Shown here piece by piece: positions 7,333-39,600 of a DNA stretch of 64,000 bases. Origin of the DNA: Candidatus Omnitrophota bacterium (GTDB lineage: Bacteria; Omnitrophota; Gorgyraeia; Duberdicusellales; 4484-171). Below the pieces are notes generated by a model, which saw only the letters and a list, made by a program, of their open reading frames with translations, did no database searches and had not been told where the DNA came from. The DNA is taken from contig JAIPGM010000004.1 of the NCBI GenBank assembly GCA_021735655.1, forward strand, positions 1-64,000. Reading direction: 5' to 3'. The translations under genes were made by a program, and so were the position numbers. Within the stretch, counting starts at the first letter, position 1; the number at the start of each line of letters is the position of its first letter.

Positions 7333-7462
7333 AACCGGCCACCTTCAATCTGCAAAAAAATAGCCAAAATTAGACTCTTTTGACTAACTATTGAAGCATC
7401 AGTTTTTTATTATAGCATAAAGGAGGCTTTGAGAAAGATAAATTTTATAAGGCTATAGGGGC

Positions 7463-7825
7463 TTATTTGGGTAGCTTAAGGATAATAAAACCTATTAAAA
7501 TATAAGCTATGCCCCCGACCCTAAATAAAATTAGCGGCTGGTTTGAGGACCATTCGATTAACTTATCAGCAGCTTTGCTTTTTAGAATAAAAAAGGCTTT
7601 AAAAACTCCGATGATTCCGATTAGAGCGATCAACTTAGGAATGAGCCCAAAGGCTTTAAAAGAAACTGAAATTAAACTCGAGGCCAAAAAAAGGGTTATA
7701 AAAAATAAAACTCTTTTAATTTTTTTGAAACTCTTTTTACGCAGTCTTTTCTGAAGTAGCTGCGGCCAAATAAAAAACAAAATTCCCAAAATGATCCAAA
7801 GCCAAGCGATAAAATTTAAAATCAT
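7463..7825 (-). CDS. hypothetical small membrane protein (3-4 TM)
   Basis: Hydrophobic 120 aa ORF with codon usage consistent with its neighbours. No recognisable motif. Confidence 0.35.
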   Translation of the reverse strand: MILNFIAWLWIILGILFFIWPQLLQKRLRKKSFKKIKRVLFFITLFLASSLISVSFKAFGLIPKLIALIGIIGVFKAFFILKSKAADKLIEWSSNQPLILFRVGGIAYILIGFIILKLPK

Positions 7826-20972: not shown

Positions 20973-21024
20973 ATTATATTAAGGCTAATTTATTTGTCAA
21001 CCAAATTAGATAGTTAGTTTACAA
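20973..21024 (-). promoter_or_regulatory. bioO-like BirA operator overlapping a consensus promoter for bioBFHCDA
   Basis: Inverted repeat TTGTCAACC (20994-21002) ... AGTTTACAA (21016-21024), compared with E. coli bioO TTGTAAACC...GGTTTACAA. On the minus strand the -35 TTGACA sits inside a half-site, followed by a 16-nt spacer and a -10 TATAAT (20973-20978). Confidence 0.65.
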
Positions 21025-21991: not shown

Positions 21992-21999
21992 CTAAGAGG

Positions 22000-22344
22000 C
22001 TATGAACGAATCATAGTTAAAATCATCTTAAACTTGGTTAAAGCGCGCAGAGCGTGGGGTTTATTGGCCGGCATAATAATAATTTGACCTTTGTTCAAAA
22101 TGTGCGGTTCATTAGAAATCATAACTTCAACTTCACCATCAATAACACCAACCAAAGCATCGAAAGGAGCAGTATGCTCACTTAAACCTTGGTCTTTATC
22201 AAAGGCAAACACAGTAACTGTTCCGGTCTCACCTTTAATTAAAGTACGACTGACCACTGAACCTTCTTGGTATTCAATTAACTCGCTTAAGCGGGTTACT
22301 TTTCCCAGTAAAGCCTTCTCAACTGAAACTGATTTATTATCCAT
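22000..22344 (-). CDS. cupin domain protein
   Basis: 114 aa with a cupin-like pattern, including a conserved PHA motif. Confidence 0.45.
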   Translation of the reverse strand: MDNKSVSVEKALLGKVTRLSELIEYQEGSVVSRTLIKGETGTVTVFAFDKDQGLSEHTAPFDALVGVIDGEVEVMISNEPHILNKGQIIIMPANKPHALRALTKFKMILTMIRS

Positions 22345-22502
22345 TGAGCCTCTCCTAAAATAATTAATAAACTATTATGAATACAAGGTAGGCAGTTTAA
22401 CGTCTTACCCGGGACATCTTAGAACAACCTTCTTTGCAATGCGTAACTGGACGCAGCATAAATTTGATTATAATATTCATATCTCACCTCCTCAATTATT
22501 AT

Positions 22503-23111
22503 CTAATTCCCAAAATGCTTCTTTAAATATTGTTCTAGAAGAGCCGTGGCTTCATCTTTACATTGACCACAGACTGTACCAAGTTTTGTTTTCTCTTGCA
22601 ACTCATAGTAGCTACGGGTACCTTCTAAAACAGCCTGTTCGATCTCAATGTCAGTAACATTCATACATTGACAGATAATCTTAGCTTTTTCTTTTTCGAT
22701 TTTATCAACCAATCCCTGGCGCTGATAGTAGTCACTGATTGCAGCTCTCAAAGCCTTATCGCCTAAAACCGAACAGTGTATTTTATGTTCCGGTAAACCG
22801 CCAAGTTCCTTAGCAATATCCTTAGGTGAAAGTTCAGAGGCCTGATCTAAAGTCATTCCCTTGGCCATCTCTGACAAAATTGAAGTTGAGGCAATAGCAC
22901 TAGCGCAGCCATAAGTCTTCCACTTACAATCAATAATTTTATTAGTTTCCTTGTCAACCTTAATGACCACAACCATCTGATCGCCACACTTTATGTTTCC
23001 GACTATGCCTTTGCCGTCTGCCTGATAAGCAGCTTCATCTTCTAAAACATTTTTAGGATTAGTAAAATGTGCCTTTAACTTCTCACTATATACCCATTCT
23101 GGATTAGTCAT
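22503..23111 (-). CDS. nifU: NifU-type Fe-S cluster assembly scaffold (IscU-like domain plus BFD-like 2Fe-2S domain)
   Basis: N-terminal IscU motifs (GCASAIAST, HCSVL) and a central CQCMNV...CGQC BFD-like Cys pattern. Length 202 aa. Confidence 0.85.
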   Translation of the reverse strand: MTNPEWVYSEKLKAHFTNPKNVLEDEAAYQADGKGIVGNIKCGDQMVVVIKVDKETNKIIDCKWKTYGCASAIASTSILSEMAKGMTLDQASELSPKDIAKELGGLPEHKIHCSVLGDKALRAAISDYYQRQGLVDKIEKEKAKIICQCMNVTDIEIEQAVLEGTRSYYELQEKTKLGTVCGQCKDEATALLEQYLKKHFGN

Positions 23112-24301
23112 TATTCATCACTTCCTTGATAAGCACTCGACATATCTCTTATCTTTTTTATTACTTTCGGAAGGACTTTAGCTACATATTCTATATCTTT
23201 AGCGCTCGTATCTCTTCCCAAACTAATTCGCACTGAACCATGAGCATATTCAGCTCCTAGGCCAGTTGCTAATAAAACATGTGACGGATCAAGCGAACCA
23301 GAAGCGCAGGCCGAACCAGTTGAAATAGCTATGCCCTCTAAATCAAGATAAAGCAAAATTGCCTCTCCTTCGGCACCAGCAAACGATACGTTTAAGGTAC
23401 CGGGAATGCAATCACTAGGATGACCATTAAAATAAATATCAGAAATATTCTTCTCTATTGCTTCTTTGAGAATTGCTTTTAATTTTAATAAACGCTCCTC
23501 TTCTGGCTTCATCTCTTTAGTCCGCATCTCTATCGCCTTAGCTAATCCGATTATTCCTAAAGTATTTTCAGTTCCGGCCCGGCGACCTCTTTCCTGATGG
23601 CCACCCCTGATTAAAGGACAAAAAGGAACCCCTCTTTTTACGTACAAAGCACCAATTCCTTTAGGCCCGTATATTTTATGTCCAGAAAGAGTTAAAAAAT
23701 CAACGTCTAACTCCTTTACATCTATTGGAATTTTTCCTACTGCCTGAACTGCATCAGTATGAAAAAGTGCCCCCCTAGAATGAGCTATTTTTGCAATCGT
23801 TTTAATATCTTGAATTGTACCAATTTCATTATTAGCCATCATCACTGAAACTAAACCAACCCTCTCACTAAGCATTTTCTCTAAACTTTCGAGATTGATT
23901 TTGCCTTGAGAGTTAACATCAAGATATAAAATTTTAGTACCTTTTTCTTCCAAGCATTTTGCTGTTTCTAATATACAAGGATGTTCGATGGCAGTTGTGA
24001 CGATCTCGGTACGACCACCACGTAAAGAAGTACAATGCGAAGAGGGGCAAGAAAAAATAGATAAAACTGTATTGTTAGCTTCTGAACCACTACCGACAAA
24101 TATAATCTCAGCGCTTTCAGCTCCAAGAAAAGAAGCAATACCTACTCTGGCTTCCTCAATCTGGCCACGAGCACGCCTGCCGGTTGCATGAAGACTTGAG
24201 GGATTACCAAAAAGCCCTAGCGACTCCCTTAAGGCCTTTTCAACTTGAGGATGCAAGGGGGTTGTTGCATTATGATCTAAATAAATATTCTGCCTAGCCA
24301 T
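23111..24301 (-). CDS. nifS: cysteine desulfurase
   Basis: Class V aminotransferase of 396 aa with PLP lysine SGHKIYGPKG and active-site SGSACASG. Confidence 0.9.
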   Translation of the reverse strand: MARQNIYLDHNATTPLHPQVEKALRESLGLFGNPSSLHATGRRARGQIEEARVGIASFLGAESAEIIFVGSGSEANNTVLSIFSCPSSHCTSLRGGRTEIVTTAIEHPCILETAKCLEEKGTKILYLDVNSQGKINLESLEKMLSERVGLVSVMMANNEIGTIQDIKTIAKIAHSRGALFHTDAVQAVGKIPIDVKELDVDFLTLSGHKIYGPKGIGALYVKRGVPFCPLIRGGHQERGRRAGTENTLGIIGLAKAIEMRTKEMKPEEERLLKLKAILKEAIEKNISDIYFNGHPSDCIPGTLNVSFAGAEGEAILLYLDLEGIAISTGSACASGSLDPSHVLLATGLGAEYAHGSVRISLGRDTSAKDIEYVAKVLPKVIKKIRDMSSAYQGSDE

Positions 24302-24363: not shown

Positions 24364-27300
24364 TTATTTCTTAAGAATCTGCCTTTCCTTAAACCAACAG
24401 TACAACACTGGGACCAAAATAAGGTTAGAAAGGGTAGCAGTAATCAGACCGCCTACAGTTGGTGAAGCCATTGGCCTCATAACTTCTGAACCGGTTCCGG
24501 TTGCTAACATAACCGGCAAAAGAGCAATAATTGTAGTTGCTGTAGTCATCATTGCCGGACGAAGGCGCAAGAGTCCAGCCCGGATGACTGTCTTTCGTAT
24601 TTCTTCAATAGTTTTGGGGACCTTCTCTCTAAACAAATTATCTAAAGTTGAAAGTAATACTACCGCATTATCAGTAGCCACACCGAACAAAGCAATGAAC
24701 CCCACCCAAACTGCAGTAGATAATCTAAGATCTAAAAAATATAGCAATATAAGGCCACCCATCAAAGACACTGGCAAACCAGTTGAAAGAATAATTAATG
24801 AACTAAAGTTCTTAAAAGCAATGTAAAGGAGCAAGAGAATAACCGTTAAGGCTATAATCAATGAAGGTATTAATCTTTTTCTCGACTCCATCTCTGATTC
24901 AAATTGGCCAGACCAGGAGATAAAATATCCTGAAGGTAATTTAAGACCCCCACTGCCAATTTTTTCCTGAACTGCTTTCTGAGCATTTTTCACAAAATCG
25001 ATCAAGCCAACCTTCTCCTGATCAACATTAATAAAAACCCTTGCATACATCAAAGTATTTTCGGCACTGATAACTGCCGGGCCCAAGACTTTCTTTAACT
25101 TTGCCAGTTGGGCCAAAGGAATGTGGCCGCCGGAAGAAGTTGGGACAAATATCCTCTTTAAGGCCTCAGGGCTCTCCCTAAGTTCACGTAAGTACCTGAT
25201 TCTTACCGGGTAACGCTCTCGGCCTTCAACAGTAGTAGTTATATTCATTCCACCGATTGCAGTCATAATAACATGCTGGATATCGGAAACTTTTATGCCG
25301 TAGCGAGCGGCCTGTTGACGGTCGATTTCTATTTCAAAATATGGCCGACTTGATGCCCGCTCAGCATAAGGACTCACTGCTCCGGGAACTTGCGCCACAA
25401 TTTTTTCAACCTGTATGCCAATATTAACTATTTTTTCTAAATCTGACCCAAAAACCTTAACCCCTACCGGAGTTTGGATTCCGGTCGCTAGCATATCAAT
25501 TCTATTTCGTATCGGTTGGGTCATAATCGGACTCACCCCGGGCATGCGAGTTTTTTCCTGAATCTCCTGAATTAATTTTTGCCGAGTCATACCAACACGC
25601 CAATCTTTTTTATCCTTTAAATGAATAATTGTTTCAATCATCAAAACCGGAGCCGGATCAGTTGCCGTCTCAGCCCGGCCTAATTTTCCAACCACCCACT
25701 CTACTTCGGGAATATCGCTTTTAATAATAAAATCCTGCTTTCGCATTATCTCCATAACCTGAGTTAGAGACGCTCCCGGTAATAGTACCGGCATAAATAA
25801 AAGATCCCCTTCATTTAAGGGCGGCATAAACTCCTGTTTCATGAGCGATCCACAAATAAGCCCAACTACTATCACCAAAATAGAAATTAGCACTATTATT
25901 TTCTTATGCCTCAATGCCCAGCTAATAGTTGGTTTATAGACTTTGCTTAATGCTCGAGCAGTTCTGTTTTCTTCAACCGGACGTAACTTACCGCGCAAAA
26001 AGTAATAACAAAGCGTGGGCAAAAGCACCAAAGCAATAACTGCAGCTGCAGCCATAGCAAAAGTCTTAGTAAAGGCAAGCGGTCTAAAGAGCTTTCCAGC
26101 CTGGCCAGTTAAGACGAAAACCGGGACAAAACCAACTATTGTGGTAAGCAAAGCAAATAAAACCGGCTTACCTACTTCTTGGGATGCGCTAATACAAGTA
26201 TTCAGTCTTTCTGAAGAAGAGAGTTTAGAAACTTTGAGCTCCTCTCTTTTCTCAACAATTCTCCGGTAAATATTTTCAACTAAGACACATCCCGAATCAA
26301 CCATAACTCCGATAGCTATAGCAATACCACCCAAAGACATAATATTAGCATCAACTCCAAATTGACGCATAAGTATAAAAGAAATTAACACTCCTATCGG
26401 AAGAACAATCGAAATGACTATGCTGCCGCCCAAATGTAATAAAAATATAATAATTACAAAAATGGTAATCAGGACTTCTTGACTCAAGGCTGTCTTTAAA
26501 GTGTCGATCGCCCGCAAAATTAAACCGGTACGGTCATAAAAAGGAACTACTTTAACTCCCTCAGGTAAGCCCACTGACAACTCTTTTATTTTTGACTTGA
26601 TTAGCTGGATGACTTTCAATGGATTCTCCCCGTAGCGCATAAGAATTACGCCACCGGTTACTTCCTTTCCTTGCTTATCCAGAGCTCCTCTTCTAAAATC
26701 TGAACCGATAGTAACCTTAGCGATATTCTTTACATATATCGGTACACCCCCTCGGGAATCAATTACAATATCTTCAATATCTTCAGTATTCTTAATAAAG
26801 CCCAAGCCCCTAACCACAAACTCAACCCCACCCTCTTCAAACACCTTTGCCCCGACATCGATGTTTGACTTTTTAACTGCACTAATAACTTGATGCAGCT
26901 TAACCTGGTGAGAAAAAAGCTTATTCGGATCTATATCTATCTGATACTGCTTAACATATCCGCCGACTGAAGCAACTTCTGACACCCCTTCAACCGAAGT
27001 TAGCTGATAACGAACATACCAGTCTTGAATCGAACGAAGCTCGGCCAAATCATAACCATCACCTTCTACTGTATACCAAAATATCTGACCCAAAGCAGTT
27101 GCGTCGGGCCCTAAAGTTACTGAAGCGTCCTTGGGAATATTTTTTTTGGCAAAGTCGAGGCGTTCCAAAACTCTGGTTCTAGCCCAATAAAAATCAGTTC
27201 CGTCTTCAAAAATCATATTAACTAAACCAAAGCCAAAGGCTGAAGTAGAGCGCACCACCTTTACCTTAGGTACTCCCATTAAACCAGTAGTTAAAGGATA

Positions 27301-27498
27301 GATAACTTGATCTTCAACATCTTTAGGACTTCTGCCCGGCCAATCAGCATAAACTAATATTTGAAGCTCACCGATATCGGGTATGGCATCTACCGGAATT
27401 TCTTTCATCGAAGAATAACCCCAAACAATTAGCAAAATAAAGGTAGCTATTACCAAGAAGCGATTCTTGAGAGCAATTTCAATAATTTTATTAATCAT
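24364..27498 (-). CDS. cusA: heavy-metal efflux RND pump (CusA/CzcA family)
   Basis: 1044 aa with 12 TM helices and two large periplasmic loops, typical of HME-RND. Follows the adaptor and OMF genes. Confidence 0.9.
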   Translation of the reverse strand: MINKIIEIALKNRFLVIATFILLIVWGYSSMKEIPVDAIPDIGELQILVYADWPGRSPKDVEDQVIYPLTTGLMGVPKVKVVRSTSAFGFGLVNMIFEDGTDFYWARTRVLERLDFAKKNIPKDASVTLGPDATALGQIFWYTVEGDGYDLAELRSIQDWYVRYQLTSVEGVSEVASVGGYVKQYQIDIDPNKLFSHQVKLHQVISAVKKSNIDVGAKVFEEGGVEFVVRGLGFIKNTEDIEDIVIDSRGGVPIYVKNIAKVTIGSDFRRGALDKQGKEVTGGVILMRYGENPLKVIQLIKSKIKELSVGLPEGVKVVPFYDRTGLILRAIDTLKTALSQEVLITIFVIIIFLLHLGGSIVISIVLPIGVLISFILMRQFGVDANIMSLGGIAIAIGVMVDSGCVLVENIYRRIVEKREELKVSKLSSSERLNTCISASQEVGKPVLFALLTTIVGFVPVFVLTGQAGKLFRPLAFTKTFAMAAAAVIALVLLPTLCYYFLRGKLRPVEENRTARALSKVYKPTISWALRHKKIIVLISILVIVVGLICGSLMKQEFMPPLNEGDLLFMPVLLPGASLTQVMEIMRKQDFIIKSDIPEVEWVVGKLGRAETATDPAPVLMIETIIHLKDKKDWRVGMTRQKLIQEIQEKTRMPGVSPIMTQPIRNRIDMLATGIQTPVGVKVFGSDLEKIVNIGIQVEKIVAQVPGAVSPYAERASSRPYFEIEIDRQQAARYGIKVSDIQHVIMTAIGGMNITTTVEGRERYPVRIRYLRELRESPEALKRIFVPTSSGGHIPLAQLAKLKKVLGPAVISAENTLMYARVFINVDQEKVGLIDFVKNAQKAVQEKIGSGGLKLPSGYFISWSGQFESEMESRKRLIPSLIIALTVILLLLYIAFKNFSSLIILSTGLPVSLMGGLILLYFLDLRLSTAVWVGFIALFGVATDNAVVLLSTLDNLFREKVPKTIEEIRKTVIRAGLLRLRPAMMTTATTIIALLPVMLATGTGSEVMRPMASPTVGGLITATLSNLILVPVLYCWFKERQILKK

Positions 27499-27509
27499 AA
27501 CTTATTAAT

Positions 27510-28688
27510 TTAATGTTGATGCCCGGCTGGCATCGATTCATCTTCTCCCAAAGCTCCTCCATAAGCTGAAGCTGCTGCGCCTAGCTGTGATTGAGAATCA
27601 ATTAAAAAATTTCCTTTTAAAACTACTGACTCTCCTTTTTCAGCTCCGGAAACTAATGGATAGAAATCCATGGTCATACCGTCAAGAACCCCTTGAGCTA
27701 GTGGCCCAACAACTACCTCCCTTAGTTGAAAACGCCCCTGGTCCAAATCAACATAGATAACTTTTCTTCTTCCAGTATCTAAAACCGCATCCTTGGGGAT
27801 ACTTAAAACCGAACCAAGATCACTTCTAAGCCAAACATCCACATACATATTAGGTTTTAGAATATTCCCTTCATTAGCAACTAAAATTTTAAGCCGCTCA
27901 GTTCTGGTTTTTTCCTTTATCACCGGTTCAATACTTTTAACTTCGCCTTTTAAAACAAGACTTGGATCAGCTTGCAAAGTTATCTCGACCAAATCTCCTT
28001 TTTGAGGCCAAATAATTTCATATTCATAAAACTCTGCATAAACCCACATATACTCATCAGGTAAAATTAAACTTCGGTCGGAAACTCCGGCTACTTCAAG
28101 CTCCTTAATCAAATCCTGATCCAAACCCAAAAGCTCAAGTTTTATCTTAGTAGCTTCAACTACATCTTGAGCTCTTTCTTTAGCATCTTCAAACCCCGAC
28201 TCAGAAACCTTTTTATAAGTATTAAGCGCTTGTAAATACTCTTCTTCGGCAGTTCTTAACTGAGGGTCGTGAGCGACAATCCCTACAGTCCGCATCTCTT
28301 TATATAAAGGTACCACCTCGACTTTGAAAGTCTCTACCCCGGCCAATTTCAGTTCGGTAGGGTTTATGGTAACAATGTTAGTTTTTTCCTGAACCATTTC
28401 TAAATCCTTACTACCGATTAAAGTATTTTGAGGAGTTGAATATATCGGAGTTAAATCCATAAAGCAAATCGGGCATTTATTATTTCCTTTTTCAAACTCT
28501 TGAGGACTCACTCTAACCGAAGGATGCATGCCGCAGGTGTAGTACAATATTTTTCTCTCCGGAGTTGCCTCTTCTGACATTTTCATACCACTCATTTGAT
28601 GGCCTTTATGTTTATTCAGATAAAGAAAGGCAATACTGGCGCCAGCTGCCAAAATAACTATTATAATTATCAATATTAATTTTTTCAT
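27510..28688 (-). CDS. cusB: efflux RND periplasmic adaptor with N-terminal heavy-metal-binding domain
   Basis: YYTCGMHPSV and CPICFMDL N-terminal metal-binding motifs, plus the membrane-fusion-protein fold. Length 392 aa. Confidence 0.8.
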   Translation of the reverse strand: MKKLILIIIIVILAAGASIAFLYLNKHKGHQMSGMKMSEEATPERKILYYTCGMHPSVRVSPQEFEKGNNKCPICFMDLTPIYSTPQNTLIGSKDLEMVQEKTNIVTINPTELKLAGVETFKVEVVPLYKEMRTVGIVAHDPQLRTAEEEYLQALNTYKKVSESGFEDAKERAQDVVEATKIKLELLGLDQDLIKELEVAGVSDRSLILPDEYMWVYAEFYEYEIIWPQKGDLVEITLQADPSLVLKGEVKSIEPVIKEKTRTERLKILVANEGNILKPNMYVDVWLRSDLGSVLSIPKDAVLDTGRRKVIYVDLDQGRFQLREVVVGPLAQGVLDGMTMDFYPLVSGAEKGESVVLKGNFLIDSQSQLGAAASAYGGALGEDESMPAGHQH

Positions 28689-28698
28689 TCCTTACCTC

Positions 28699-29964
28699 CT
28701 AAAGATCCTCCCCAATAATATACTCAATTTGAGCAACTGTCTTCATGTAATCTACAGTTTGTTTTAACTCGGCGATTTTTATAGAAATTACGCTTCTTTC
28801 AGCATCAAGAAAACTCAAAAAATCAACCACTCCATCTTCATAGCCAATACGTGATACCGAAAAATTATGCATGCTCTCAGGCAAGATTACATTCTTATAC
28901 AAATCAATAAGTTGCTCTTCAGTCTCCAGCCTAAAGTGTAAGTCCTCTATCTTGAATGATAAAAAGTTTTCCTTATCTTCAACTTGATACTCTTGAGCTT
29001 CTAGCTTTGCTTTTTCAGAACTAATCTCTGAACGTACTTTCCAAAACCACAAAGGAACTTTTACCTGAAAGCCAATCATCCAGGCATCCTGGCCGTCATT
29101 TTCAAGATTAGTGGTTCCGCCGCCGATATCGATATACTCAGCCATAATTCCGAAATCAGGAATATAGCCTTGCTTGGCTAAAGAAAACTTATCCTTTTGT
29201 TTCTCAAGCATTAAAAGATCAATGATTATATGAGGGCTTTCAGCATAAGCTTTATCTAATAACTCATTTTTATCGATGTTGACTCTCTGAGCCAGTAGCC
29301 TAAAACCTAAAGGAAGCTTAATATAACTATTTTGGGGCCGGTTCAAGATACGATTAATTTGAGCTCGAAGAAGGTTTTTTTGCTTGTTTAATTTCAAAAT
29401 TTTGTCTTCGATCTTAGCAATTTCTAAATCAACTTTCACCAAATCCTGCTGCGGGGCGGAGAGGGTTTCGTATTTACTCTTTATACTACTGCGAATACCT
29501 TCCAAGATCAACTTTTCAGCTTCCATGATGTGGACGGATTCAACGACGAAAAAATAATCATAAAAATAAGACTTCAAATTTTCTATAACCCCCCTTACCT
29601 CTAAAATATAACGGGCATAGGCCACTGCAGCCTCTTTCTGGGCTATGTCGCCTTTAAGCCAAAGTTTACCAGGATAAGGTATCGCTTGTTTTATGCTGTA
29701 TTTTCTCTTCATCGGACCAGCTTTAGTTTCGACTGACTCGCCCCAAAAACCAAAACCAACTTCCGGCTGAGGCAGGCTTCTCTCAGCGGTAATCCTGGCC
29801 TTCTTGGACTCCCATTCTTTATTTAAAGCCCTCAACTTAAGATTATTAACTAAAGCCTCATCAAGCAATAATTCTAAAGTGTCTCTCGTTTTATCTTGAG
29901 CAAAAACTGTCATCCTCAAGACAAAAACAAACATCAAAGAAACTACAAGCAATTTTTTCGTCAT
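28699..29964 (-). CDS. cusC: TolC-family outer membrane efflux protein
   Basis: Signal peptide followed by two OEP repeats. Length 421 aa. First gene of the CBA efflux triad. Confidence 0.8.
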   Translation of the reverse strand: MTKKLLVVSLMFVFVLRMTVFAQDKTRDTLELLLDEALVNNLKLRALNKEWESKKARITAERSLPQPEVGFGFWGESVETKAGPMKRKYSIKQAIPYPGKLWLKGDIAQKEAAVAYARYILEVRGVIENLKSYFYDYFFVVESVHIMEAEKLILEGIRSSIKSKYETLSAPQQDLVKVDLEIAKIEDKILKLNKQKNLLRAQINRILNRPQNSYIKLPLGFRLLAQRVNIDKNELLDKAYAESPHIIIDLLMLEKQKDKFSLAKQGYIPDFGIMAEYIDIGGGTTNLENDGQDAWMIGFQVKVPLWFWKVRSEISSEKAKLEAQEYQVEDKENFLSFKIEDLHFRLETEEQLIDLYKNVILPESMHNFSVSRIGYEDGVVDFLSFLDAERSVISIKIAELKQTVDYMKTVAQIEYIIGEDL

Positions 29965-30242
29965 AGCTTATTCAATCTTTTTATTATACTGATTATCTCA
30001 CTTATTTTTTGTTGCTTATCCTTTTCCGATCTGCCGCTCAGGGCATCGACTACGCAATGCTCCATATGCTTAGAAAGTATCTTTTCAGCAACTCTGCGTA
30101 GGGCGCCGATTGAAGCATATACTTGAGTAGCAATATCAATACAATACTTCTTATCGTCAATCATTTTCTGGATACCTTTAACTTGGCCTTCAATTCGTTT
30201 CAAAGCAATTAAATTCTCTTGGTGAGTTGTCTTGTGGGGCAT
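29961..30242 (-). CDS. csoR: CsoR/RcnR family metal-sensing repressor (Cu(I)-type C-H-C site)
   Basis: 93 aa with a C-x24-H-x3-C ligand arrangement (KYC...SKHMEHC), matching CsoR W-X-Y-Z positions. Confidence 0.75.
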   Translation of the reverse strand: MPHKTTHQENLIALKRIEGQVKGIQKMIDDKKYCIDIATQVYASIGALRRVAEKILSKHMEHCVVDALSGRSEKDKQQKISEIISIIKRLNKL

Positions 30243-30247
30243 ATTAC

Positions 30248-30970
30248 CTACCTCCTGTTTAATTTTATCCTATCTAGAATGGGATTGAAACAATTGGCTA
30301 GAAATAGTGAGCCGATAAAGAAATCATAGCCAGGGAATAGCTTGAAAATAAGAAAAGAAAAAATGCCGGCTAAGCTTCCAAAAATGAACCCTCGTAGAGC
30401 TCCGAAACCCGAGGTCTTAGGCTCAATAAGCATAATAAACAAAAAGAAAAAACTCAAAATACTAAAAGGATTTACTCTTTCGAGAACGAAAAGAGATAAA
30501 AAGAAAACTAAGAACCCTAAAATATGCGGGATTTTCTTAAAAACATAAGCCAGATAAATCCCCACAACTATAATTAAAAAAATGTTAGCTTCGATATGCC
30601 AGGTAAGCGGCAATCGAAAAAGAACGGCTAAAAAAAGAGCGAAATTAGCTGGATTAAATAGGTGTTTTTTTCTAAATCTTAAAAGGTGTTTAGAAACAAT
30701 GGCTAGTAAAGAAAAAATAACTAGTATATAAAAAGCCTGATGATAATCCAAAACTCCTGAAACAATAAATCCGGTAATTAGGGCGCTTTTGACTGAAACC
30801 CTGCGCCTAGAAAATACTTTATTTATATAATAATCAGCCAGACTGGCGCTAACCAGTCCACCTAGAACCCAAAACAGAAAGCGCAATCCCTCTTGAACGG
30901 CCATCATTAACGATAGCGCGCTCAAAAGGACGATTACGATATTTTTCTTGTCTTTTAAAAATTTTCTCAT
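30248..30970 (-). CDS. hypothetical polytopic membrane protein (6-8 TM, several His; FNPA motif reminiscent of the RnfD/NqrB family)
   Basis: Hydrophobic 240 aa ORF embedded in the copper operon. Contains [11 protein letters not shown]. No firm family assignment. Confidence 0.35.
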
Positions 30971-31524
30971 TCTTTAACTATTAACTTAGCCTTCATGCTA
31001 TGATGGCCTCTTCCGCAATAAACTGAACAGAGAATCGGAAATTCCCCTGCTTCTTTAGCAATAAACTCTATTTTTCTAGTTTCCCCTTTTTTAACTGTGA
31101 CGTTTATATTGTATTCCTTAATATAGACTCCATGAGGTACATCCCGGGAACTAGCCAGAATTCTTACTATGTCACCTTTTTCTACAACGATCTCCTCTGG
31201 CTCAAAACCAAACTGATAGGCTTCTAATTCAAACTCTTTAATTTTAGAGATATACTTCTCAGGATCCTTCTTAAATTCATCGACGCAGGAAGGGCAACAA
31301 AAATAATAAGTTTTTCCCTGATGAGTGTATGAATATTCTTTGCTAGCCTCTCCTCCCATAACCGGGCAAATTCCTAAATTGTCTTCGGATCTAACTGCCT
31401 TTTCATCCGTCATCTGCTTATTGGTATGATTATCCATGTCGTGGTGATGATGATCCATGTCTTGAGCATAACCCAAACTCAGATTCAAAAAAATAATTAA
31501 ACCAAACAAAACTACTCTTTTCAT
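30967..31524 (-). CDS. secreted His-rich YHS-domain / CuA-type cupredoxin fusion protein
   Basis: Signal peptide, then a His tract [15 protein letters not shown] motif CPVMGG...[11 protein letters not shown]...DPEKY. C-terminal HGVY...(38 aa)...[12 protein letters not shown], which matches the COX2/N2OR CuA motif H...CxxxCGxxHxxM. Confidence 0.65.
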
Positions 31525-31565
31525 CGCCCAGCCTCCTTTTCTAAATTATACCAGACTTTTTATCC

Positions 31566-32261
31566 CTACTCTACTATTTCAACCTCAAACTCAACATTTA
31601 TTGTTGAATATACCGGGTCGTTGCTCTTAATTGTGACCGACCTTGCCATATGGCCTAATTTAACATGGGGGTGGTCTAAATCGGTTACAATGATCAACTT
31701 TCCTTCTTCGGCAGGCGCAAGATCAGCTTTCCAACTACTTTTTAAATTCTCCATATTCATTGAAAAAGCCGGACTCTCGCTTTTTTTCGTCTTTAGCCTG
31801 ACTGTCGTGCACCCGCAGCTAGTCTTAAGTTCATTAATGGTCAGCGCCGTATTGCCTTTATTCTTTACCTTGACCGCTAACTCTAATTTACCCTTACTCT
31901 TACTGACCTTTCCTAAATCGTATGCCAAAGGCTTAATAAAAATCTCTGGCCGCTTTGCTCCGGCTTCCTCTATTAGCTTTTTCTCGACCACCTTTTTAGT
32001 TTTAAAGTCGATTATGCTATCAAGAGAATATTTTTTAGCTATTTTTAGCATAATCTCCTCTTCCCCCAGGCCAGCCTCTAAAAAGGCGTCTATGTAAGCT
32101 TTCATCTCTTTAGCGTGAGCACAAGTGCAGGAAATAAAAGATTTGCCGCACTTGCAACATTCCAATTTAGAATAAATGTCTTCTTTGGCCCCGGCAAAAA
32201 CAGTACTGCTAAAAAACGCAACCAGTAAAACAAAAACAATAACTTTTAATTTTTTACTCAT
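31566..32261 (-). CDS. secreted Cys-rich protein with C-terminal DUF1573 domain
   Basis: Signal peptide. Cys cluster ECCKCGKSFISCTCAH. The DUF1573 hallmark motif (TSCGCTT) lies mid-protein in LAVKVKNKGNTALTINELKTSCGCTTV, with about 80 residues following it. Confidence 0.6.
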   Translation of the reverse strand: MSKKLKVIVFVLLVAFFSSTVFAGAKEDIYSKLECCKCGKSFISCTCAHAKEMKAYIDAFLEAGLGEEEIMLKIAKKYSLDSIIDFKTKKVVEKKLIEEAGAKRPEIFIKPLAYDLGKVSKSKGKLELAVKVKNKGNTALTINELKTSCGCTTVRLKTKKSESPAFSMNMENLKSSWKADLAPAEEGKLIIVTDLDHPHVKLGHMARSVTIKSNDPVYSTINVEFEVEIVE

Positions 32262-33378
32262 CGTTCTCTCCTCCTTCTACCGGATAGCCGGCATCTTCCC
32301 AGGCGCCAAAGCCATCCTCAAAAACCTTGATTCTTCCCGGCTTAAAACCATTCTTGATCAAAATTCTTCCGGCACTCATACTGGCATCGCACTTTCCTCC
32401 GTCCCAGGTACCTTCACAATAAAAAACCACCTCTTTATCAGGTGATATTTTATCAAGATTGTATTCTAAATCTGAAAGCGGAATACCCAGAGCGTCTTTA
32501 ACATGCCCGGCCGAATAATCATCCTTATTTCTAACATCAACCCAAATAATATCCTTAAACAATAAAAAGTAATGTTCGTAAGCTTCCTCTAGGTGGACTA
32601 TGGCCGGTTCTTGGCTAGCCGGTAACTTTGGCCCGCGAATTAAAGGATAACCTTTTTTCTCCCAAAAAGAGATACCGTCTAAGTTGTAAGCGTTGTAACC
32701 CTTCTGCCGCAGCTTCTTGGTTATGTAACTGCTTCTATGGCCGGCTCCGCAATAAGAAACTAGAGGTGTTTCTTTGTCGATGTCCTGAAGTTTAGCTAAA
32801 ACATTCTCATCATTGCGGTCGAACCTGCTTTTAGGAAACCATACGGCCTCGGGGATGTGCCGTTCAATATATTCATTCTCTTCCCTTACGTCTAAAATAA
32901 CTATTTTTTGTTCCTTCCCTAACCGTTCATAGAGCTCAGTTGAGCTAAGGCTGGGTATCTTGGAAATGTTTTTCTGGCCAAAGGATGCCTTAGGCCCAAT
33001 CTCAGCTGAAATACTAAATTTTAACTTGGGCTGGGAGAGATCATTAGAAACAAGGTAGATATATTTCTCGTCTTTGCCGGGCTGCTTGCCTTGAGGATTG
33101 TAAATTACTTTTAATTCTGCCTTAACTCCGGCTGGTATTCGGTTAGAAGAAATCTCAGCAGTAGTACAACCGCAGGTAGTATAGACTTTCTCAATAACCA
33201 GATCCTCATCCCCGACATTCTCTACCGTAAAAATCTTCTCTTTTCTCTGGCTTTCCTCTATCTTGCCAAAATCCCAGTAATTTGAATCAACCCTAATATT
33301 GGGGCCGGATTTTCCGGCGGCTTCTTGGCTGAAAAATAAAGAAAAAAACAATAATAAATAAAGCAATTTTTTCATCAA
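32254..33378 (-). CDS. secreted DUF1573 domain + tandem rhodanese-domain protein (putative sulfurtransferase)
   Basis: Signal peptide, then N-terminal DUF1573 (VYTTCGCTT). First rhodanese has the active loop YCGAGHRSS. A second rhodanese-like domain carries YCEGTWDGGKCDASMSAGR. Length 374 aa. Confidence 0.65.
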   Translation of the reverse strand: MMKKLLYLLLFFSLFFSQEAAGKSGPNIRVDSNYWDFGKIEESQRKEKIFTVENVGDEDLVIEKVYTTCGCTTAEISSNRIPAGVKAELKVIYNPQGKQPGKDEKYIYLVSNDLSQPKLKFSISAEIGPKASFGQKNISKIPSLSSTELYERLGKEQKIVILDVREENEYIERHIPEAVWFPKSRFDRNDENVLAKLQDIDKETPLVSYCGAGHRSSYITKKLRQKGYNAYNLDGISFWEKKGYPLIRGPKLPASQEPAIVHLEEAYEHYFLLFKDIIWVDVRNKDDYSAGHVKDALGIPLSDLEYNLDKISPDKEVVFYCEGTWDGGKCDASMSAGRILIKNGFKPGRIKVFEDGFGAWEDAGYPVEGGENDE

Positions 33379-33617
33379 TCAGCTTCCTTTTTCTGCTTTC
33401 CTTCATGACAGCTCTTAGGAACTTTTCCGCTGCCTTTGGCAATCCAGTTTAAGAATCCATCAGTGGGCTTTCTCCTAAGATAATCTCCAATATTCTCCTG
33501 GAAAGTAGCTTTGCAGGCTTGACAATCAAAATAATAAGTTTTTCCCTGATGAGAAAAAAAATATTCCGTATTTTTACTCACCCTTACTCCGCATACGGGA
33601 TCCCGTTTTTTAAACAT
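33375..33617 (-). CDS. YHS-domain protein
   Basis: DPVCGV...GKTYYFDCQACKATF, a canonical YHS/TRASH motif. Length 80 aa. Immediately downstream of copA. Confidence 0.7.
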   Translation of the reverse strand: MFKKRDPVCGVRVSKNTEYFFSHQGKTYYFDCQACKATFQENIGDYLRRKPTDGFLNWIAKGSGKVPKSCHEGKQKKEAD

Positions 33618-33630
33618 TTTTAACCTCCAA

Positions 33631-36111
33631 TTATATTGCCCGCTTGTACCTTCGCATCAACAAAGAATTAGATACTACGCTGACCGAACTAAAGGCCATG
33701 GCTGCGCCGGCAATCATCGGGTTCAATAAAAACCCAAATATTGGATAAAGTATACCGGCAGCAACCGGTATACCGGCAGCATTATAAAAGAAAGCCCAGA
33801 AAAGATTCTGTTTTATCTTCTTCATCGCATAATGCGATAAATCCATAGCCATAACCACATCGCGCAGGTCATCCTTAATCAATACTATGTCGCCGGATTC
33901 AATAGCTACATCGGTTCCGCTGCCGATAGCCAACCCAATATCAGCCTGAGTTAAAGCCGGGGCATCATTTATACCGTCGCCGACCATAGCTACTTTTAAA
34001 CCTTCAGCCTGAAGCTTCTTGACTTCATTAGCTTTATCTTTAGGCAGGACTTCGGCTAAAACCCGCTTAATACCCAGTTGTTTGGCTATGGCTTGGCCGG
34101 TGCGTTTGTTATCGCCGGTAATCATAATCACCTGTTTTTTCATCTGTTTCAATTTAGCCACTGCCGCTTTAGAAAATTCCTTCAAAGTATCGGCTACGGC
34201 GATAATTCCGATTAGCTTATCGGCAGCAGCTACCAGCATAGCGGTTTTCCCTTCGTTCTCTAATTTTTCTAAATCTTTTTCTGCTTTTAAAATATCGATA
34301 TTCTCTTCCTCCATAAACTTTCGATTACCCAGTAAAACTCTTACTCCCTCTACCCGGGCCAATACGCCTTTGCCGGTGATTGAGTTAAAATCAGTGATTG
34401 CTTTTAATTCTATAGCCTTATCTTTGGCTCCTTTTACAATTGCTTCAGCCAGAGGATGCTCAGAACTTTTCTCCACCGACGCCGCTAAACACAATACTTC
34501 ACTATCAGCTTTATCATAAGCTACCACATCTGTAATTTGCGGTTCTCCCTTGGTAAGTGTACCGGTCTTATCAAAAACTATTGCTTGAATTTGATGGGCT
34601 AGCTGAAGGCTTTCGGCACTCTTGATCAATATGCCGTTTTCTGCCCCTAAACCGGTCCCGACCATTACGGCAGTCGGGGTAGCTAAGCCCAAAGCACAGG
34701 GACAGGCAATAATTAAAACGGCAATGAAAATAGTTAAAGCAAAAACAAACCCCTGGCCAACAGCCAGCCAGATAATAAAAGCTAAGATAGCAATTCCTAC
34801 TACTGCCGGCACAAAATAGGCTGATATCTTATCGGCTAATTCCTGAATTGGCGCCTTAGACCCCTGGGCTTCTTCGACCAATCTGATGATCTGAGCCAAA
34901 GCCGTATCTTTGCCGACTTTGGTAGCTTTAAACTTAAAACTACCGGTTTTATTTATGGTAGCTCCGATAACCTGGCTGCCTTTAGATTTTTCAACCGGGA
35001 TACTTTCTCCGCTGATCATTGACTCATCCACGCTGGAATAGCCGTCTGTTACTTGGCCGTCAACCGGAATTTTTGCTCCCGGCCTGACTATGACAATATC
35101 GCCGGCTATTACTTCTTCTACCGAAACCTCCTGCTCCTTACCGTTACGTAAAACCAGGGCTTTTTTCGCTTGAAGGCCCATGAGTTTTTTTATCGCCTCA
35201 GAAGTTTTACCTTTAGCGATTGATTCTAAAAACTTACCTAACAAGATAAAAGCAATCAAGAATCCAGCAATCTCATAATAAAGATTTTTCATATCAAAAG
35301 CAGATGAGCCCGACCAGATCACTATCGAAACATATAAACTATAAAGGTAAGCTGCTCCCACACCTAAAGCCACCAAAGTATCCATGTTCGCAGTATGGGT
35401 TTTAATCACTGCCGAAAAACCTCGAGTAAAAAACTGATAGCCGGCAAACATAATCGGAGTAGCCAGGAGAAACTGAATCAAAGCCATATTATTTACCATC
35501 CAGGAAGCAAGAGGCAGTTTTAACCCCGAACTCATCGCAAAATACATCAGCGGCGCAGCCAGAATAATCGAAACTATAAACTTAAGTTTAAGAATTCTTA
35601 TCTCCCTTTCTCGAGTTTCTTTTTCTAAATCCGGGGTGGCTTTTTCTTGCTCAATCGGCTCATAGCCAGCGGCTTTAATTACGGCTTTAATCTTCTCGGC
35701 AGAAAGAATAGCCGGATCAAATTTAATCTTTGCCCGCTGGTTCACCAATAACTCTTTGCTGGTTATCCCCTTAAGGCTGTTTAGGGCTCCCTCTACCGTG
35801 CTAAGGCAATGAGGGTTGTCCATACCGATAACTTTAAGCTCTAACAGGCCTGCGGTTTTCTTATTGCCGGCTACCTTGTAGCCGGTTTTCTCTATAGCCT
35901 TATGCAAAACCTCCAAATTAACTTTACCGGAATCATAGTCAACATAAGCCTTTTCGCTGGCAAAATTAACCCTGGCTTGTTTTACTCCCGGAGTTTTTTT
36001 CAAGGCACCTTCAATAGTTGCCACACAGCTCGCACAGTGCATACCGCTTATACTGATAACCGTCTTACTTAAACCAGACATAGATTTACCCTCTCCTTTC
36101 GTTATCCGCAA
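33631..36111 (-). CDS. copA: copper-translocating P1B-type ATPase with two N-terminal HMA domains
   Basis: Two HMA CxxC motifs ([15 protein letters not shown]). TM CPC motif ([11 protein letters not shown]). DKTGT phosphorylation site and GDGINDAP. Length 826 aa. Confidence 0.95.
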
Positions 36112-36140
36112 CCCCCTGACTGTTCTTTTCCGAGATACTC

Positions 36141-36533
36141 TTAATGATGAGCCTCATGTCCGGAAGGCATTTCTTTTTCACTGTTTTTTCTGCCCTGGCC
36201 GGCATCATCTTTACCCATCATCGGACAACTTTTCATCATTTCTTTCATCATTTGCCGCATTCCTTCGCTATCGATGCTTAGCTCAACCTCTTTCACCAAA
36301 TTTAACTTTTTATCATATTTAACAAGCTTATTGCCTAAAAGCAACACTACCCCTCCATCTTCAGTGGCCACTAATTGTTTTTTAACCATCATCTGCATCA
36401 TACCTTTTCCCATCATACTCTTGCTCATCATACCTTTATCCATCATCTCTGAAGAATGTTCTTCAGCAAAAACAGAAAAGTTAACAACAACCAACAGCAA
36501 ACTACCTAAAACAATACCGGTAAACCGCTTCAT
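36141..36533 (-). CDS. secreted methionine-rich putative Cu(I)-binding protein
   Basis: Signal peptide, multiple MxxM/MM motifs ([20 protein letters not shown]; [14 protein letters not shown]) and a C-terminal HEAHH. Resembles PcoE/SilE/CusF-type Met-rich sites. Confidence 0.55.
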
Positions 36534-36784: not shown

Positions 36785-36814
36785 ATGATACCACACCCCC
36801 CTATGGTATGTCAA
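36785..36814 (-). promoter_or_regulatory. sigma70-like promoter with CsoR-type operator at the head of the copper operon
   Basis: On the minus strand: TTGACA (36809-36814), an 18-nt spacer, TATCAT (36785-36790). The inverted repeat ATACCA-CACCCCCCTA-TGGTAT (36788-36809) fills the spacer. A G/C tract flanked by ATACC/GGTAT resembles known CsoR operators. Confidence 0.5.
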
Positions 36815-36870: not shown

Positions 36871-37461
36871 TTAATCCTTAGTAACCAAAAAAATAGCGTT
36901 TAAAGCGAAAAGGTTGGGGAAAAACTTTACTAACTTCCTTTTGCCAAGATAAAAGGCACTAGAAACCTTTATCTGTTTTTCAACACAGAAGTCTTTAAAG
37001 TCATTAATGCTCAAAAAATGAACATTGGGTGTATCATGCCAATGGTAAGGTAAAGAAGCGGTTATCGGAACTTTTCCTCTAAAGAAAATTCTAAAGCGGG
37101 CCGGAAAATAGGTAAAATTGGGAAAGCCAACAATTACTTCTTTGCCAATCCTCAAAGATTCAGTCACTACGTAGTCGACTTTTTTAATTTCTTGCATACT
37201 TTGATTCAATATCACATAATCAAAAGCTTTAGCCGGATATCCAGAAAGCCCTGTTTCAATGTCGCCATGGAATACACTTAAATCCTTCTCAACACAATTA
37301 TAAATACCTCTCTCATCCAGCTCAATGCCTTGTGCTTTTACTTTCTTTTCTTTGACTAAAAAATGCAAAAGATCTCCATTGCCGCAGCCAAGATCAAGCA
37401 CCTTAGCTCCGGGTTTAACAATCTTATAGATTATCCTATGGTCCAAACGTATCTTATCCAT
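36871..37461 (-). CDS. metW: methionine biosynthesis protein MetW (methyltransferase-fold partner of MetX)
   Basis: LDLGCGNG motif. Length 196 aa. Sits immediately downstream of metX with overlapping stop and start. Confidence 0.75.
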
Positions 37462-38596
37462 TTTTCACCAAATCATAGGTCTTTCTCAAAAAATTCTTAA
37501 CCAAACGGGTCTGTTCGTCAACCTCCAGCAAAAAAGCATCGTGGCCATAGGTTGACTCTATTTCACAATAAGTAACATCAACTTGTCGAGTTTTAAGCTG
37601 CTGAATTATCTCTCTAGACTGATAAGGCGGATAGAGCCAGTCTGACTTAAAGGCAATAACTAAGAAGCGAGTATCAATTTTGTTACTCTTCGCCACTAAT
37701 TTCCCTTCTGACAAATCAAGATAGTCCATAGCCTTAGTGATATAAAGGTAGCTGTTAGCATCAAAGCGCTTTACAAAGCTATCTCCTTGATATCTCAAAT
37801 ATCCTTCAACTTCAAAGTCAGTCTTAAAACTAAAGCTATAGTTTTTTTCTTTAAGTTTACGGGAAAACTTCTTCTCCATCGACTCATCGCTCATATAAGT
37901 TATATGACCGATCATCCTAGCAACAGACAAACCCCTCTGAGGCTGAGATTTTCCGTAGTAATTACCCTCAAGCCAATCTGGGTCAGCCATTACCGCCTGC
38001 CTCCCAACCTCATCGAAAGCTATTTGCTGAGGAGAATGCTTTAAGGCCGTAGCTATAGGAATTGCCGATGAGATGACTTCCGGATAAGAAGCTGCCCATT
38101 GTAAGACTTGCATACCACCCATTGATCCGCCAGTAACACAAAGTATCTTCTTAATGCCTAAATAATCTATAAGTCTCTTCTGAGCCGCGACCATATCAGC
38201 AATGGTAATTATCGGAAAATCAATACCATAAGGTTTATTGGTCTTAGGGCTAGTTGAAGAAGGCCCGGTTGAGCCTTTACAGCCACCAAGAACATTAGAG
38301 CAAATTATGAAATACTTATCGGTATCAAAAGCTTTGCCCGGGCCAATCATTATATCCCACCAGCCGGGTTTTTCGTCTCCTTGATGAAAACCAGCCGCAT
38401 GAGCATCACCGCTTAAAGCATGGGCAACTAGAACGGCATTGGTTTTAGCTGAATTTAATTCCCCATAAGTTTCATAGCAAAGAGTAATCGGGCCTAGCTC
38501 TCCCCCATTAGCTAGCTTAAGCTGATCAGACTGATCAGCAAAAGTAAAACTCTGCGGTTCAATAATTCCTAAGCTATTTTTAGCATTTTTGCTCAT
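37454..38596 (-). CDS. metX: homoserine O-acetyltransferase
   Basis: Alpha/beta hydrolase of 380 aa with nucleophile GGSMGG. Typical MetX N-terminus and metXW pairing. Confidence 0.9.
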
Positions 38597-38673
38597 AATT
38601 TACTAGATTTACTACTTAATCTGACTAAAGATTATTAGACCACAAGAGCAAACATTGTTCAAGGCCTTTATTC

Positions 38674-39600
38674 TTAGCCCTTAAACAACCAGGTTGAAAG
38701 ATATCTTTCGCCAGTATCGGGTAGAATTGCCACAATTGTTTTTCCTGAGGAATCTTTACGCTTGGCTACCTCTAGGGCCGCCCACATTGCTGCTCCGCTG
38801 GATATACCGACAAAAATTCCTTCCTTCTTAGCTAAAAGGCCAGCAACTTTACCGGCATCAACATGGGACACCTTTATAATTTCATCGATTATTTCTCGAT
38901 TTAAAACTTCCGGGATAAACCCGGCACCGATTCCCTGAATTTTATGCGAACCTGGTTTTTCACCGGAGATAACCGCTGACTCAACTGGTTCAAGGGCGAT
39001 AACCTTTAAAGATTTATTTTTTTTCTTTAAGGCTTCGCCTACCCCGGTTACTGTGCCTCCAGTACCAACCCCGGAAATAAAAATATCAATTTTTCCGCCA
39101 GTGGCTTCCCAAATTTCTTCGGCTGTTGTAATTCTATGAATCTCGGGATTAGCCGGATTATTAAACTGTTGAGGTACAAAACTGTTGGGAGTGTTTTTTG
39201 CAATTTCTTCTGCCTTTTCAACAGCCCCCTTCATGCCTTTAGCTCCTTCAGTCAATACTAATTCTGCTCCAAAAATCTCAAGAAGTTGCCGACGCTCAAT
39301 ACTCATTGTGTCAGGCATGGTAAGAATTAATCTATAGCCCTTAGCAGCACAAACAAAAGCTAAAGCTATCCCAGTATTTCCGCTAGTCGGTTCTACTATA
39401 ACCGAACCCTTCTTGATTAAACCTTTACTTTCAGCATCCGCAATCATTGCTGCGCCAATTCTGTCTTTAACGCTGGAAAGTGGATTAAAAGATTCTAATT
39501 TTGCCAATACTGTAGCCTGGGTATCTTTTGCCAAACGGTTGATTTTCACCAAAGGAGTATTGCCAATAGTTTTCGTAATATCATCTAATATTTTCGCCAC
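38674..39600 (-). CDS. cysK: cysteine synthase / O-acetylserine sulfhydrylase
   Basis: PLP-lysine motif SVKDRIG, plus the glycine-rich loop GTGGT. Length 308 aa. Confidence 0.85.

Follow-up and report, generated by a model that had tools for sequence, protein, structure and literature searches.

A DUF1573 protein with a Cys-rich CcmH-like domain in a copper-export operon of Candidatus Omnitrophota and its possible role in periplasmic Cu(I) handling

The DNA analyzed here, referred to as the window, comprises the first 64,000 nucleotides of contig JAIPGM010000004.1 (assembly GCA_021735655.1) from a Candidatus Omnitrophota bacterium. We focused on one protein encoded in it, hereafter the target, which consists of a signal peptide, a CcmH-like domain rich in cysteine (Cys) and a DUF1573 domain of immunoglobulin (Ig)-like fold. 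Its gene belongs to a putative operon with the order Met-rich open reading frame (ORF), CopA, YHS, DUF1573-rhodanese, target, YHS-cupredoxin, RnfD-like, CsoR, OEP, CusB and CusA (Table 1). Public records designate members of the target family as "DUF1573 domain-containing" or "LEA14-like", and the N-terminal domain carries no annotation there. One of them, a "DUF1573 domain-containing protein" of Candidatus Omnitrophica bacterium derived from a metagenome-assembled genome, is 100% identical to the target. The AlphaFold2 model of the full-length protein (mean predicted local distance difference test score, pLDDT, 91.8; predicted template modelling score, pTM, 0.78) shows a helical domain, a charged linker helix (residues 86–100) and an Ig-like sandwich (residues 113–230). 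The N-terminus, MSKKLKVIVFVLLVAFFSSTVFA followed by GAKED after the predicted cleavage site, has a KK n-region and a hydrophobic core and resembles a Sec type-I signal peptide, while neither a lipobox nor a twin-arginine motif was seen in it on reading the sequence. Moreover, all homologues have a hydrophobic N-terminus ending in FA right before the conserved domain. The target is thus probably exported by Sec to the periplasm.

Table 1. Positions of the target, its parts and the surrounding features in the window
Feature	Position	Strand	Basis or remarks
Target ORF, ATG start, 231 amino acids plus stop	31566..32261	minus	ORF list, identical NCBI protein, AlphaFold2 model
Predicted Sec signal peptide, residues 1–23, cleavage after VFA and before G	32193..32261	minus	Read from sequence
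Divergent CcmH/NrfF-type helical domain, residues 26–106	31944..32186	minus	
Cys-rich loop, residues 35–49, CCKCGKSFISCTCAH	32115..32159	minus	Sequence, conservation, alignment to CcmH motif
DUF1573 Ig-like beta-sandwich, residues 107–231, PapD/ASH/MSP type	31569..31943	minus	Pfam, Foldseek
DUF1573 CGC motif, C149-G-C151, in a beta-hairpin turn	31809..31817	minus	Conservation, NCBIfam OS_HP2 match
Putative operon, Met-rich ORF to CusA, gaps of at most 41 nucleotides and several overlaps	24364..36533	minus	ORF coordinates, family assignments
Secreted Met-rich protein, 130 amino acids, first operon gene	36141..36533	minus	
CopA	33631..36111	minus	Translation carries CPC, YN, MxxSS
Cytoplasmic YHS protein	33375..33617	minus	
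Partner: secreted DUF1573 plus two rhodanese domains	32254..33378	minus	Pfam
Partner: secreted His-rich region, YHS and CuA-type cupredoxin	30967..31524	minus	Pfam YHS, Cupredoxin_1, COX2
RnfD/NqrB-like membrane protein, 240 amino acids	30248..30970	minus	26.4 bits, just below cut-off
CsoR	29961..30242	minus	Translation carries C34/H59/C63 pattern
Outer-membrane factor (OEP), CusB, CusA	24364..29964	minus	
Best promoter-like site, TTGACA-18-TATCAT with TG, enclosing TACCATAGGGGGGTGTGGTA	36785..36814	minus	Promoter scan, 11/12 matches

The Cys-rich loop begins 12 residues past the predicted cleavage site and reads C35-C36-K-C38-x6-C45-T-C47-A-H49. An earlier note on this DNA had written the pattern correctly except for one spacing, given there as x7; the gap between C38 and C45 (GKSFIS) is six residues. 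Cys accounts for 1.26% of residues in the long ORFs of the window, at which frequency the chance of at least five Cys in a given 13-mer is 3.8e-7 and only 0.007 such 13-mers are expected over all 18.8k residues, so that chance is not a credible source of the loop. A homology search retrieved 34 proteins at E ≤0.001, one being the identical NCBI record and the other 33 sharing 38–64% identity with the target. Among these 33 homologues C45 is invariant, and C35, C38 and C47 as well as the pair C149/C151 of the DUF1573 domain are each at least 90% conserved. The conservation expected of the cluster in orthologs therefore holds for the core C35/C38/C45/C47, while the trailing His and C36 are not conserved. 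A reading as an iron-sulfur cluster protein was rejected, as a Sec-type signal without twin-arginine would mean export in the unfolded state.

In fact, the loop is not a separate N-terminal tag, as it had been taken to be, but part of a domain with the three-helix bundle fold of the CcmH/NrfF periplasmic domain. The relationship is distant. Pfam reports CcmH (PF03918) for residues 27–78 at 13.3–15.2 bits, under the gathering cut-off of 25 bits, and a similar weak, sub-threshold match occurs in 18 of 29 family members. Profile searches against the PDB with full-length and N-terminal alignments gave only spurious alphaRep/HEAT-repeat matches, and the link to CcmH came through fold comparison and profile-profile alignment. 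We then searched the profile of the N-terminal domain against 1.84 billion representative proteins and obtained merely 119 clusters. Of the 115 newly retrieved relatives, 60 match Pfam CcmH, and several exceed the cut-off, among them P0113, P0090, P0094 and P0118, the last with CcmH at 32 bits and DUF1573 at 82 bits. A bona fide CcmH with two Cys (P0146; 77 bits in Pfam, with matches to 2HL7 and 2KW0) was likewise retrieved. Alignment of the family with four canonical CcmH sequences by hhalign gave a probability of 96.8% and an E value of 2.2e-10, and C35 and C38 fall on the (L)RCxxC motif, which CcmH carries in the loop ahead of helix 2, both there and in a hidden Markov model alignment with P0146. 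The Cys cluster therefore corresponds to the CcmH/NrfF active-site loop, in which the two ancestral Cys (C35/C38) have been increased to five.

The domain nevertheless departs in several respects from CcmH/NrfF/CycL (PF03918; 2HL7, 2KW0), which serves System I of cytochrome c maturation as a thiol-disulfide oxidoreductase in the periplasm. First, its three added Cys (C36 or C37, C45 and C47) occupy the conserved "ADSNA" stretch of CcmH. Second, CcmH has a membrane anchor after the periplasmic domain, and a C-terminal hydrophobic stretch is present in P0146, whereas neither the translation nor the AlphaFold2 model of the target shows a hydrophobic segment after the signal peptide; the charged helix and the DUF1573 sandwich follow instead. 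Third, the domain is fused to DUF1573 and set in copper-export operons. Moreover, the first canonical Cys is lost in a large sub-lineage of the family. With several defining features failing, the target is not a functional CcmH. We also considered the PCYCGC/CYCXC family (PF13798) for relatives of CYCGC type, but membership was dropped, as the target has no match at E up to 0.1 and only 2 of the 115 wider relatives match weakly. Some of the wider relatives (the P0127 cluster of Melioribacter / Rosettibacter, P0085, P0096, P0112 and others) contain two tandem Cys-rich CcmH-like domains with CxCGxCG...CxCxHPxGA. P0127 additionally has an N-terminal double zinc ribbon in Pfam, a family (DZR) matching 9 of the 115 proteins scanned, and the gene of P0094, likewise a tandem protein, adjoins those of a PKD-PCYCGC protein, an FTR1 permease and a DtxR-type regulator.

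Variation of the loop within the family is ordered. Over 174 domain instances it keeps a 3+2 arrangement of Cys while the exact positions slide: in the wider family the first group forms CCxC, CxCC, CxCxC or CxCGxC and the second CxC or CC. C36 alternates with C37, and the CC doublet is not family-wide. Among 58 close relatives, 22 have His as residue 49; of 112 sequences from the wider family, 27 carry Met at this position and 20 carry His. The species representatives of Omnitrophota have three types of loop, namely five Cys (KCCxC...CxC), four Cys (CxxC...CxC) and three Cys (RD[KR]RC...CxC). The 3-Cys type makes up a large lineage in which C35, the first CcmH cysteine, and with it the RCxxC motif is lost and C38/C45/C47 are kept, and it occurs in complete copper islands (L021–L029). 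The Cys core that is retained is C38/C45/C47 rather than the canonical CcmH redox pair. There is also a 2-Cys subgroup retaining just C38 and C45, and in a few members nearly all loop Cys are gone and DUF1573 is still present. A single Omnitrophota contig (L014) encodes two family paralogues (2389..3084 and 6928..7623), one with a 4-Cys and one with a 5-Cys loop.

In Pfam the C-terminal half of the target scores 43 bits for DUF1573 (PF07610; cut-off 26.1), with residues 113–159 aligned to profile positions 7–52 of 98, and 27.8 bits for PF22544. pLDDT exceeds 95 over most of residues 107–231, and Foldseek matches the sandwich to 2qsv (Porphyromonas) and to PapD/ASH/MSP-like domains in the PDB. 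The domain was rightly described before as a paralogous module, since it shares 35% identity over 63 amino acids (E 4e-9) with the DUF1573 at the N-terminus of the rhodanese protein encoded upstream. Like the DUF1573/OS_HP2 family and 2QSV, it is a PapD/ASH-type Ig-like sandwich with an [ST]-C-x-C-[TV] hairpin motif, here S-C149-G-C151-T, and NCBIfam matches residues 129–158 to the OS_HP2 (seleno)protein. It differs from that family in that just the first half of the Pfam profile is matched, that the second half contains a family-specific insertion (about residues 158–178, consensus SPxFG...GW), and that it is combined with a CcmH-like domain. No functional study of DUF1573 was found in a full-text literature search. 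Two reviews list DUF1573 selenoproteins with UGC at the CxC motif, and the same tables include YHS-domain proteins and an E1-E2 cation-transporting ATPase (COG2217) (PMC9312934, PMC13188914). The conservation of the CxC pair and these UGC forms argue that the DUF1573 domain probably bears a reactive site of its own and goes beyond a passive scaffold, scaffolding being the role suggested in the earlier note.

Copper is the common theme of the surrounding genes. The CPC, YN and MxxSS residues of CopA and the Cys34/His59/Cys63 set of CsoR mark Cu(I)/Ag(I) specificity. In addition, the sequence TACCATAGGGGGGTGTGGTA within the promoter-like site upstream of the operon is a G-tract pseudopalindrome and, in a motif search, the sole TACC..GGTA site with a G-tract in the window. 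CsoR operators are G-tract pseudopalindromes flanked by TAC/GTA (PMC3902906), and we regard TACCATAGGGGGGTGTGGTA as operator-like, a candidate CsoR-type operator at 36789..36808 in the promoter. The stop of the DUF1573-rhodanese gene overlaps the target start by 8 nucleotides. In this partner protein the first rhodanese domain has the typical C-G-A-G-H-R-S loop and the second an unusual Cys-rich loop, YCEGTWDGGKCDAS. For this protein NCBIfam reports rhodanese-related selenoproteins and the rhodanese/DsbD-like TsoB as similar. The YHS-cupredoxin partner matches the NosZ and CoxB C-terminal families of NCBIfam. It has the complete binuclear CuA ligand set D-V-x-H ... C-x3-C-x3-H-x2-M after its His-rich stretch and YHS domain; this soluble CuA cupredoxin is part of neither an oxidase nor an N2O reductase but is encoded among copper-resistance genes in one operon.

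We scanned one genome per GTDB species and compared the resulting 22 loci (21 from Omnitrophota and one labelled Planctomycetales) by tblastn with the operon proteins of the window. At least one copper gene (YHS, CuA cupredoxin, CsoR, CopA or CusA) is present in 18 of the 22 loci, and CusA lies within 10 kb in 14. Usually the YHS gene is directly upstream and the CuA cupredoxin directly downstream of the target homologue. Metagenomic contigs encoding homologues show a matching copper context, and so do some more distant relatives: P0061 comes after CopA, CsoR, OEP, MFP and RND genes, P0037 after a YHS gene, and P0118 has genes for an HMA P-type ATPase and a YHS protein nearby. The copper link suggested in the earlier note is thus supported, by the CopA/CsoR/CusCBA operon around the target and by the recurrence of this neighbourhood among species. 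We examined an 867-amino-acid gene upstream of P0082 as a possible P-type ATPase; it has no BLASTP similarity to the CopA of the window, and that locus, where a DsbA-like gene is nearby, gives no copper evidence. A second P-type ATPase, 23–25% identical to the window CopA and additional to a CopA orthologue of about 60% identity, lies between cusA and the YHS/target genes in L013, L020–L024 and L029.

Gene fusions further connect the domains of the operon. In five of the 22 species (L013, L021–L024) a single polypeptide comprises signal peptide, CcmH-like domain, DUF1573 and CuA cupredoxin, the last with C-x3-C-x3-H-x2-M, and P0037 and P0053 join the target family to a CuA cupredoxin in the same architecture. 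The functional tie to the rhodanese-DUF1573 neighbour, proposed earlier, is borne out by the gene overlap, by the recurrence of the pairing in L004, L006, L010, L012, L014 and L020, and by fusions: P0061 contains two rhodanese domains, a CcmH-like domain and DUF1573, while P0025, P0039, P0042 and P0044 carry an extra N-terminal DUF1573 (DUF1573-CcmH-like-DUF1573). Since these domains are fused to one another among relatives, the three neighbouring periplasmic genes of the window are parts of one functional unit. Other fusions join the CcmH-like domain to a peroxiredoxin-type AhpC/TSA-Redoxin (P0104) or place an HMA domain and then a membrane anchor at the N-terminus (P0006).

The target shares features with several known copper proteins without belonging to any of their families. 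ScsC/ScsB, Sco, TlpA and CopG (DUF411, CxCC) are thioredoxin-fold periplasmic proteins of copper-stress loci, whose Cys bind Cu(I) or service copper sites. The target likewise places Cys on a thiol-oxidoreductase fold in a copper locus, a functional analogy, but its folds are CcmH-like and Ig-like, not thioredoxin; no relationship to these families emerged in sequence or fold, and no Pfam match to them was obtained at E up to 0.1. Cox17, of the mitochondrial intermembrane space, holds a CCxC Cu(I) motif on a twin-Cx9C CHCH fold and passes copper towards the CuA site of Cox2 via Sco1. The K-C-C-x-C motif of the target and its link to a CuA cupredoxin, here by gene adjacency and fusion, are reminiscent of it; however, the twin-Cx9C motif and CHCH fold are absent, and the CC doublet is not conserved in the family. 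Neither Pfam nor NCBIfam matches the target to the Cox17, Csp, metallothionein or CopG/DUF411 families, whose folds include the twin-Cx9C CHCH, the Cys-lined four-helix bundle and the thioredoxin-like DUF411. Given the CcmH-like fold, its likeness to Cu(I)-thiolate cluster binders is limited to the short CCxC and CxC motifs. CopI, which has a mononuclear (green) copper centre, resembles not the target but the YHS-cupredoxin partner, in being a secreted cupredoxin with an N-terminal His-rich stretch and copA-type resistance genes alongside. It has been described as a cupredoxin-like protein of the periplasm that serves copper tolerance and has regions rich in His and Met (PMC4600104, PMC13308877), whereas the partner combines a YHS domain with all ligands of a binuclear CuA site.

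The target is a lineage-typical accessory of copper-export islands in Omnitrophota, here dedicated to a Cu(I)/Ag(I) island with CopA and CusCBA that is probably under CsoR control. Building on the observed fold, Cys conservation pattern, operon membership and domain fusions, we tentatively read it as a periplasmic module that binds or transfers Cu(I) through thiolates, a reading to which we give slightly less than an even chance. It would work physically with the DUF1573-rhodanese protein and the soluble CuA-type cupredoxin. The reduced Cys loop may bind Cu(I) as a thiolate site, either trigonal S3 or a small cluster, after picking up Cu(I) released by CopA into the periplasm, and could act as its donor or acceptor towards the Cus pump or the partner protein with YHS and CuA cupredoxin. 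The CxC of DUF1573, together with rhodanese or thioredoxin-fold partners, might hold the thiols reduced or relay the metal. The loss of C35 in the 3-Cys lineage of copper islands means that the canonical CcmH redox pair is dispensable, and the three retained thiols C38/C45/C47 would fit Cu(I) coordination better than a disulfide relay. The sliding Cys positions and the frequent Met or His at residue 49 likewise appear to favour a Cu(I) module. So do the firm placement in Cu(I) export islands, the link to CuA domains and the HMA fusion, as well as the apparent Cu(I) hallmarks of the island, namely the residue patterns of CsoR and CopA, the Met-rich first gene and the candidate operator. The UGC forms of the DUF1573 CxC, tabulated alongside YHS proteins and a cation-transporting ATPase, are counted on this side too.

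Several observations weigh against this reading. The parent CcmH fold is that of a thiol-disulfide oxidoreductase, not of a metallochaperone, and thioredoxin-fold partners recur (the Redoxin gene near P0017 and the P0104 fusion), as expected for an electron relay of the CcmG-to-CcmH type. His or Met occupies residue 49 in only about 40% of sequences, four of the 22 loci have no copper genes in the DNA available, and the HMA fusion of P0006 comes from a 1.1-kb contig and could be gene-calling read-through.

The main alternative is a CcmH-like periplasmic thiol-disulfide oxidoreductase, in which the Cys loop, or a CxxC/CxC pair within it, is redox-active and does not bind copper stably. Fed with electrons by a TlpA/CcmG-type redoxin or the rhodanese partner, it would keep the CuA Cys pair (C-x3-C-x3-H) of the cupredoxin or the CxC of DUF1573 reduced for copper loading, or else repair wrong disulfides made by copper catalysis. 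We consider this somewhat unlikely, yet a serious contender. The homology to CcmH, with C35/C38 on RCxxC, is what one would expect of a reductase, and so are the Redoxin gene directly downstream of P0017, the Redoxin domain joined to P0104 and the DsbA-like gene near P0082. The fused CuA cupredoxin has a Cys pair that needs reduction before metallation, and TlpA is such a reductase for CoxB and Sco. The selenocysteine forms of the DUF1573 CxC are typical of redox sites, and copper is known to affect thiol-dependent cytochrome c assembly in the periplasm (PMC4600104). On the other hand, a large sub-lineage in the same copper islands is without C35 and hence without the canonical CxxC pair, five Cys with sliding positions exceed the needs of a redox relay, an odd number of conserved thiols is unsuited to a set of disulfides, and a redoxin partner is found in few loci only. 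The two readings compete, yet they are not mutually exclusive. Sco, ScsC and CCS combine copper and thiol-redox activities.

A structural or adaptor role appears quite improbable to us. Here the Cys would only stabilize the helical domain, through Zn(Cys)3-4 or disulfides, and the protein would be a non-catalytic scaffold for rhodanese, YHS and cupredoxin near CopA or Cus. The PapD/ASH/MSP-type Ig fold is indeed a common module of protein-protein interaction, the domains are shuffled among polypeptides like parts of one complex, and the 2-Cys subgroup (C38, C45) and near-Cys-less members suggest that the fold survives without a full cluster. But the lineage of the copper islands shows strong conservation of the core Cys, residue 49 of the wider family is often Met, which does not ligate Zn, and the ancestral CcmH fold, as in the two-Cys protein 2HL7, is stable without metal or extra disulfides. 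Finally, an ordinary cytochrome c maturation CcmH/NrfF orthologue lying near copper genes by accident would account for the fold and profile similarity but is effectively excluded on sequence evidence, since the target reaches only 13–15 bits, has DUF1573 in place of the C-terminal membrane anchor and has copper context in 18 of the 22 genomes together with cupredoxin fusions, no Ccm families occur in the annotated neighbourhoods of close homologues (a single PF01578, Cytochrom_C_asm, gene belongs to a haem-synthesis cluster and lies some 2 kb downstream of P0061, a distant relative), and the window contains no other CcmH-like ORF and no multihaem ORF; the canonical role was rejected on context and architecture.

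Returning to Cu(I) handling, a wider proposal is that the CcmH-like/DUF1573, DUF1573-rhodanese and YHS/CuA-cupredoxin proteins constitute a previously undescribed periplasmic copper-handling system of anaerobic Omnitrophota, in which a cytochrome-maturation fold turned Cu(I)-thiolate carrier loads or unloads the soluble CuA cupredoxin, with the DUF1573 CxC (selenocysteine in some lineages) as relay. We regard this full scheme as unlikely, at perhaps one chance among several. If the carrier system is true, the large orphan family DUF1573 would gain a biochemical role for the first time, and the mitochondrial route from Cox17 to Sco to CuA would have a bacterial analogue on unrelated folds. The repeated adjacency and fusion of this orphan with selenoprotein forms in CsoR/CopA/CusCBA islands provide a concrete and testable hypothesis. 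To our knowledge, haem attachment is the process with which the CcmH fold has been linked until now. A Cys-enriched CcmH offshoot in copper islands would mean that a thiol-oxidoreductase fold was recruited a second time to handle copper, Sco, ScsC and CopG being the precedents on thioredoxin folds. The question also bears on how strict or facultative anaerobes, for which the O2-dependent CueO is unusable, handle periplasmic Cu(I).

Among the remaining genes of the operon, the first encodes an extremely Met-rich protein, which also contains HEAHH, has no match in Pfam or NCBIfam and recalls Cu(I)/Ag(I) binders of the periplasm in style. The likeness of the membrane protein to RnfD/NqrB is weak and concerns the N-terminal half; the protein is kept in copper islands L011, L012, L013, L014, L020 and L030. 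On one side of the island (36871..39600) lie PALP, MetX and MetW, and on the other (21014..24301) NifS, NifU, cupin and BirA. In L008, PALP, MetX and MetW are followed by a DUF1573-CcmH-like-DUF1573 fusion and then cupin, with no copper pump. Because the same flanks occur there without the pump, the copper genes look like a variable insertion at a conserved site.

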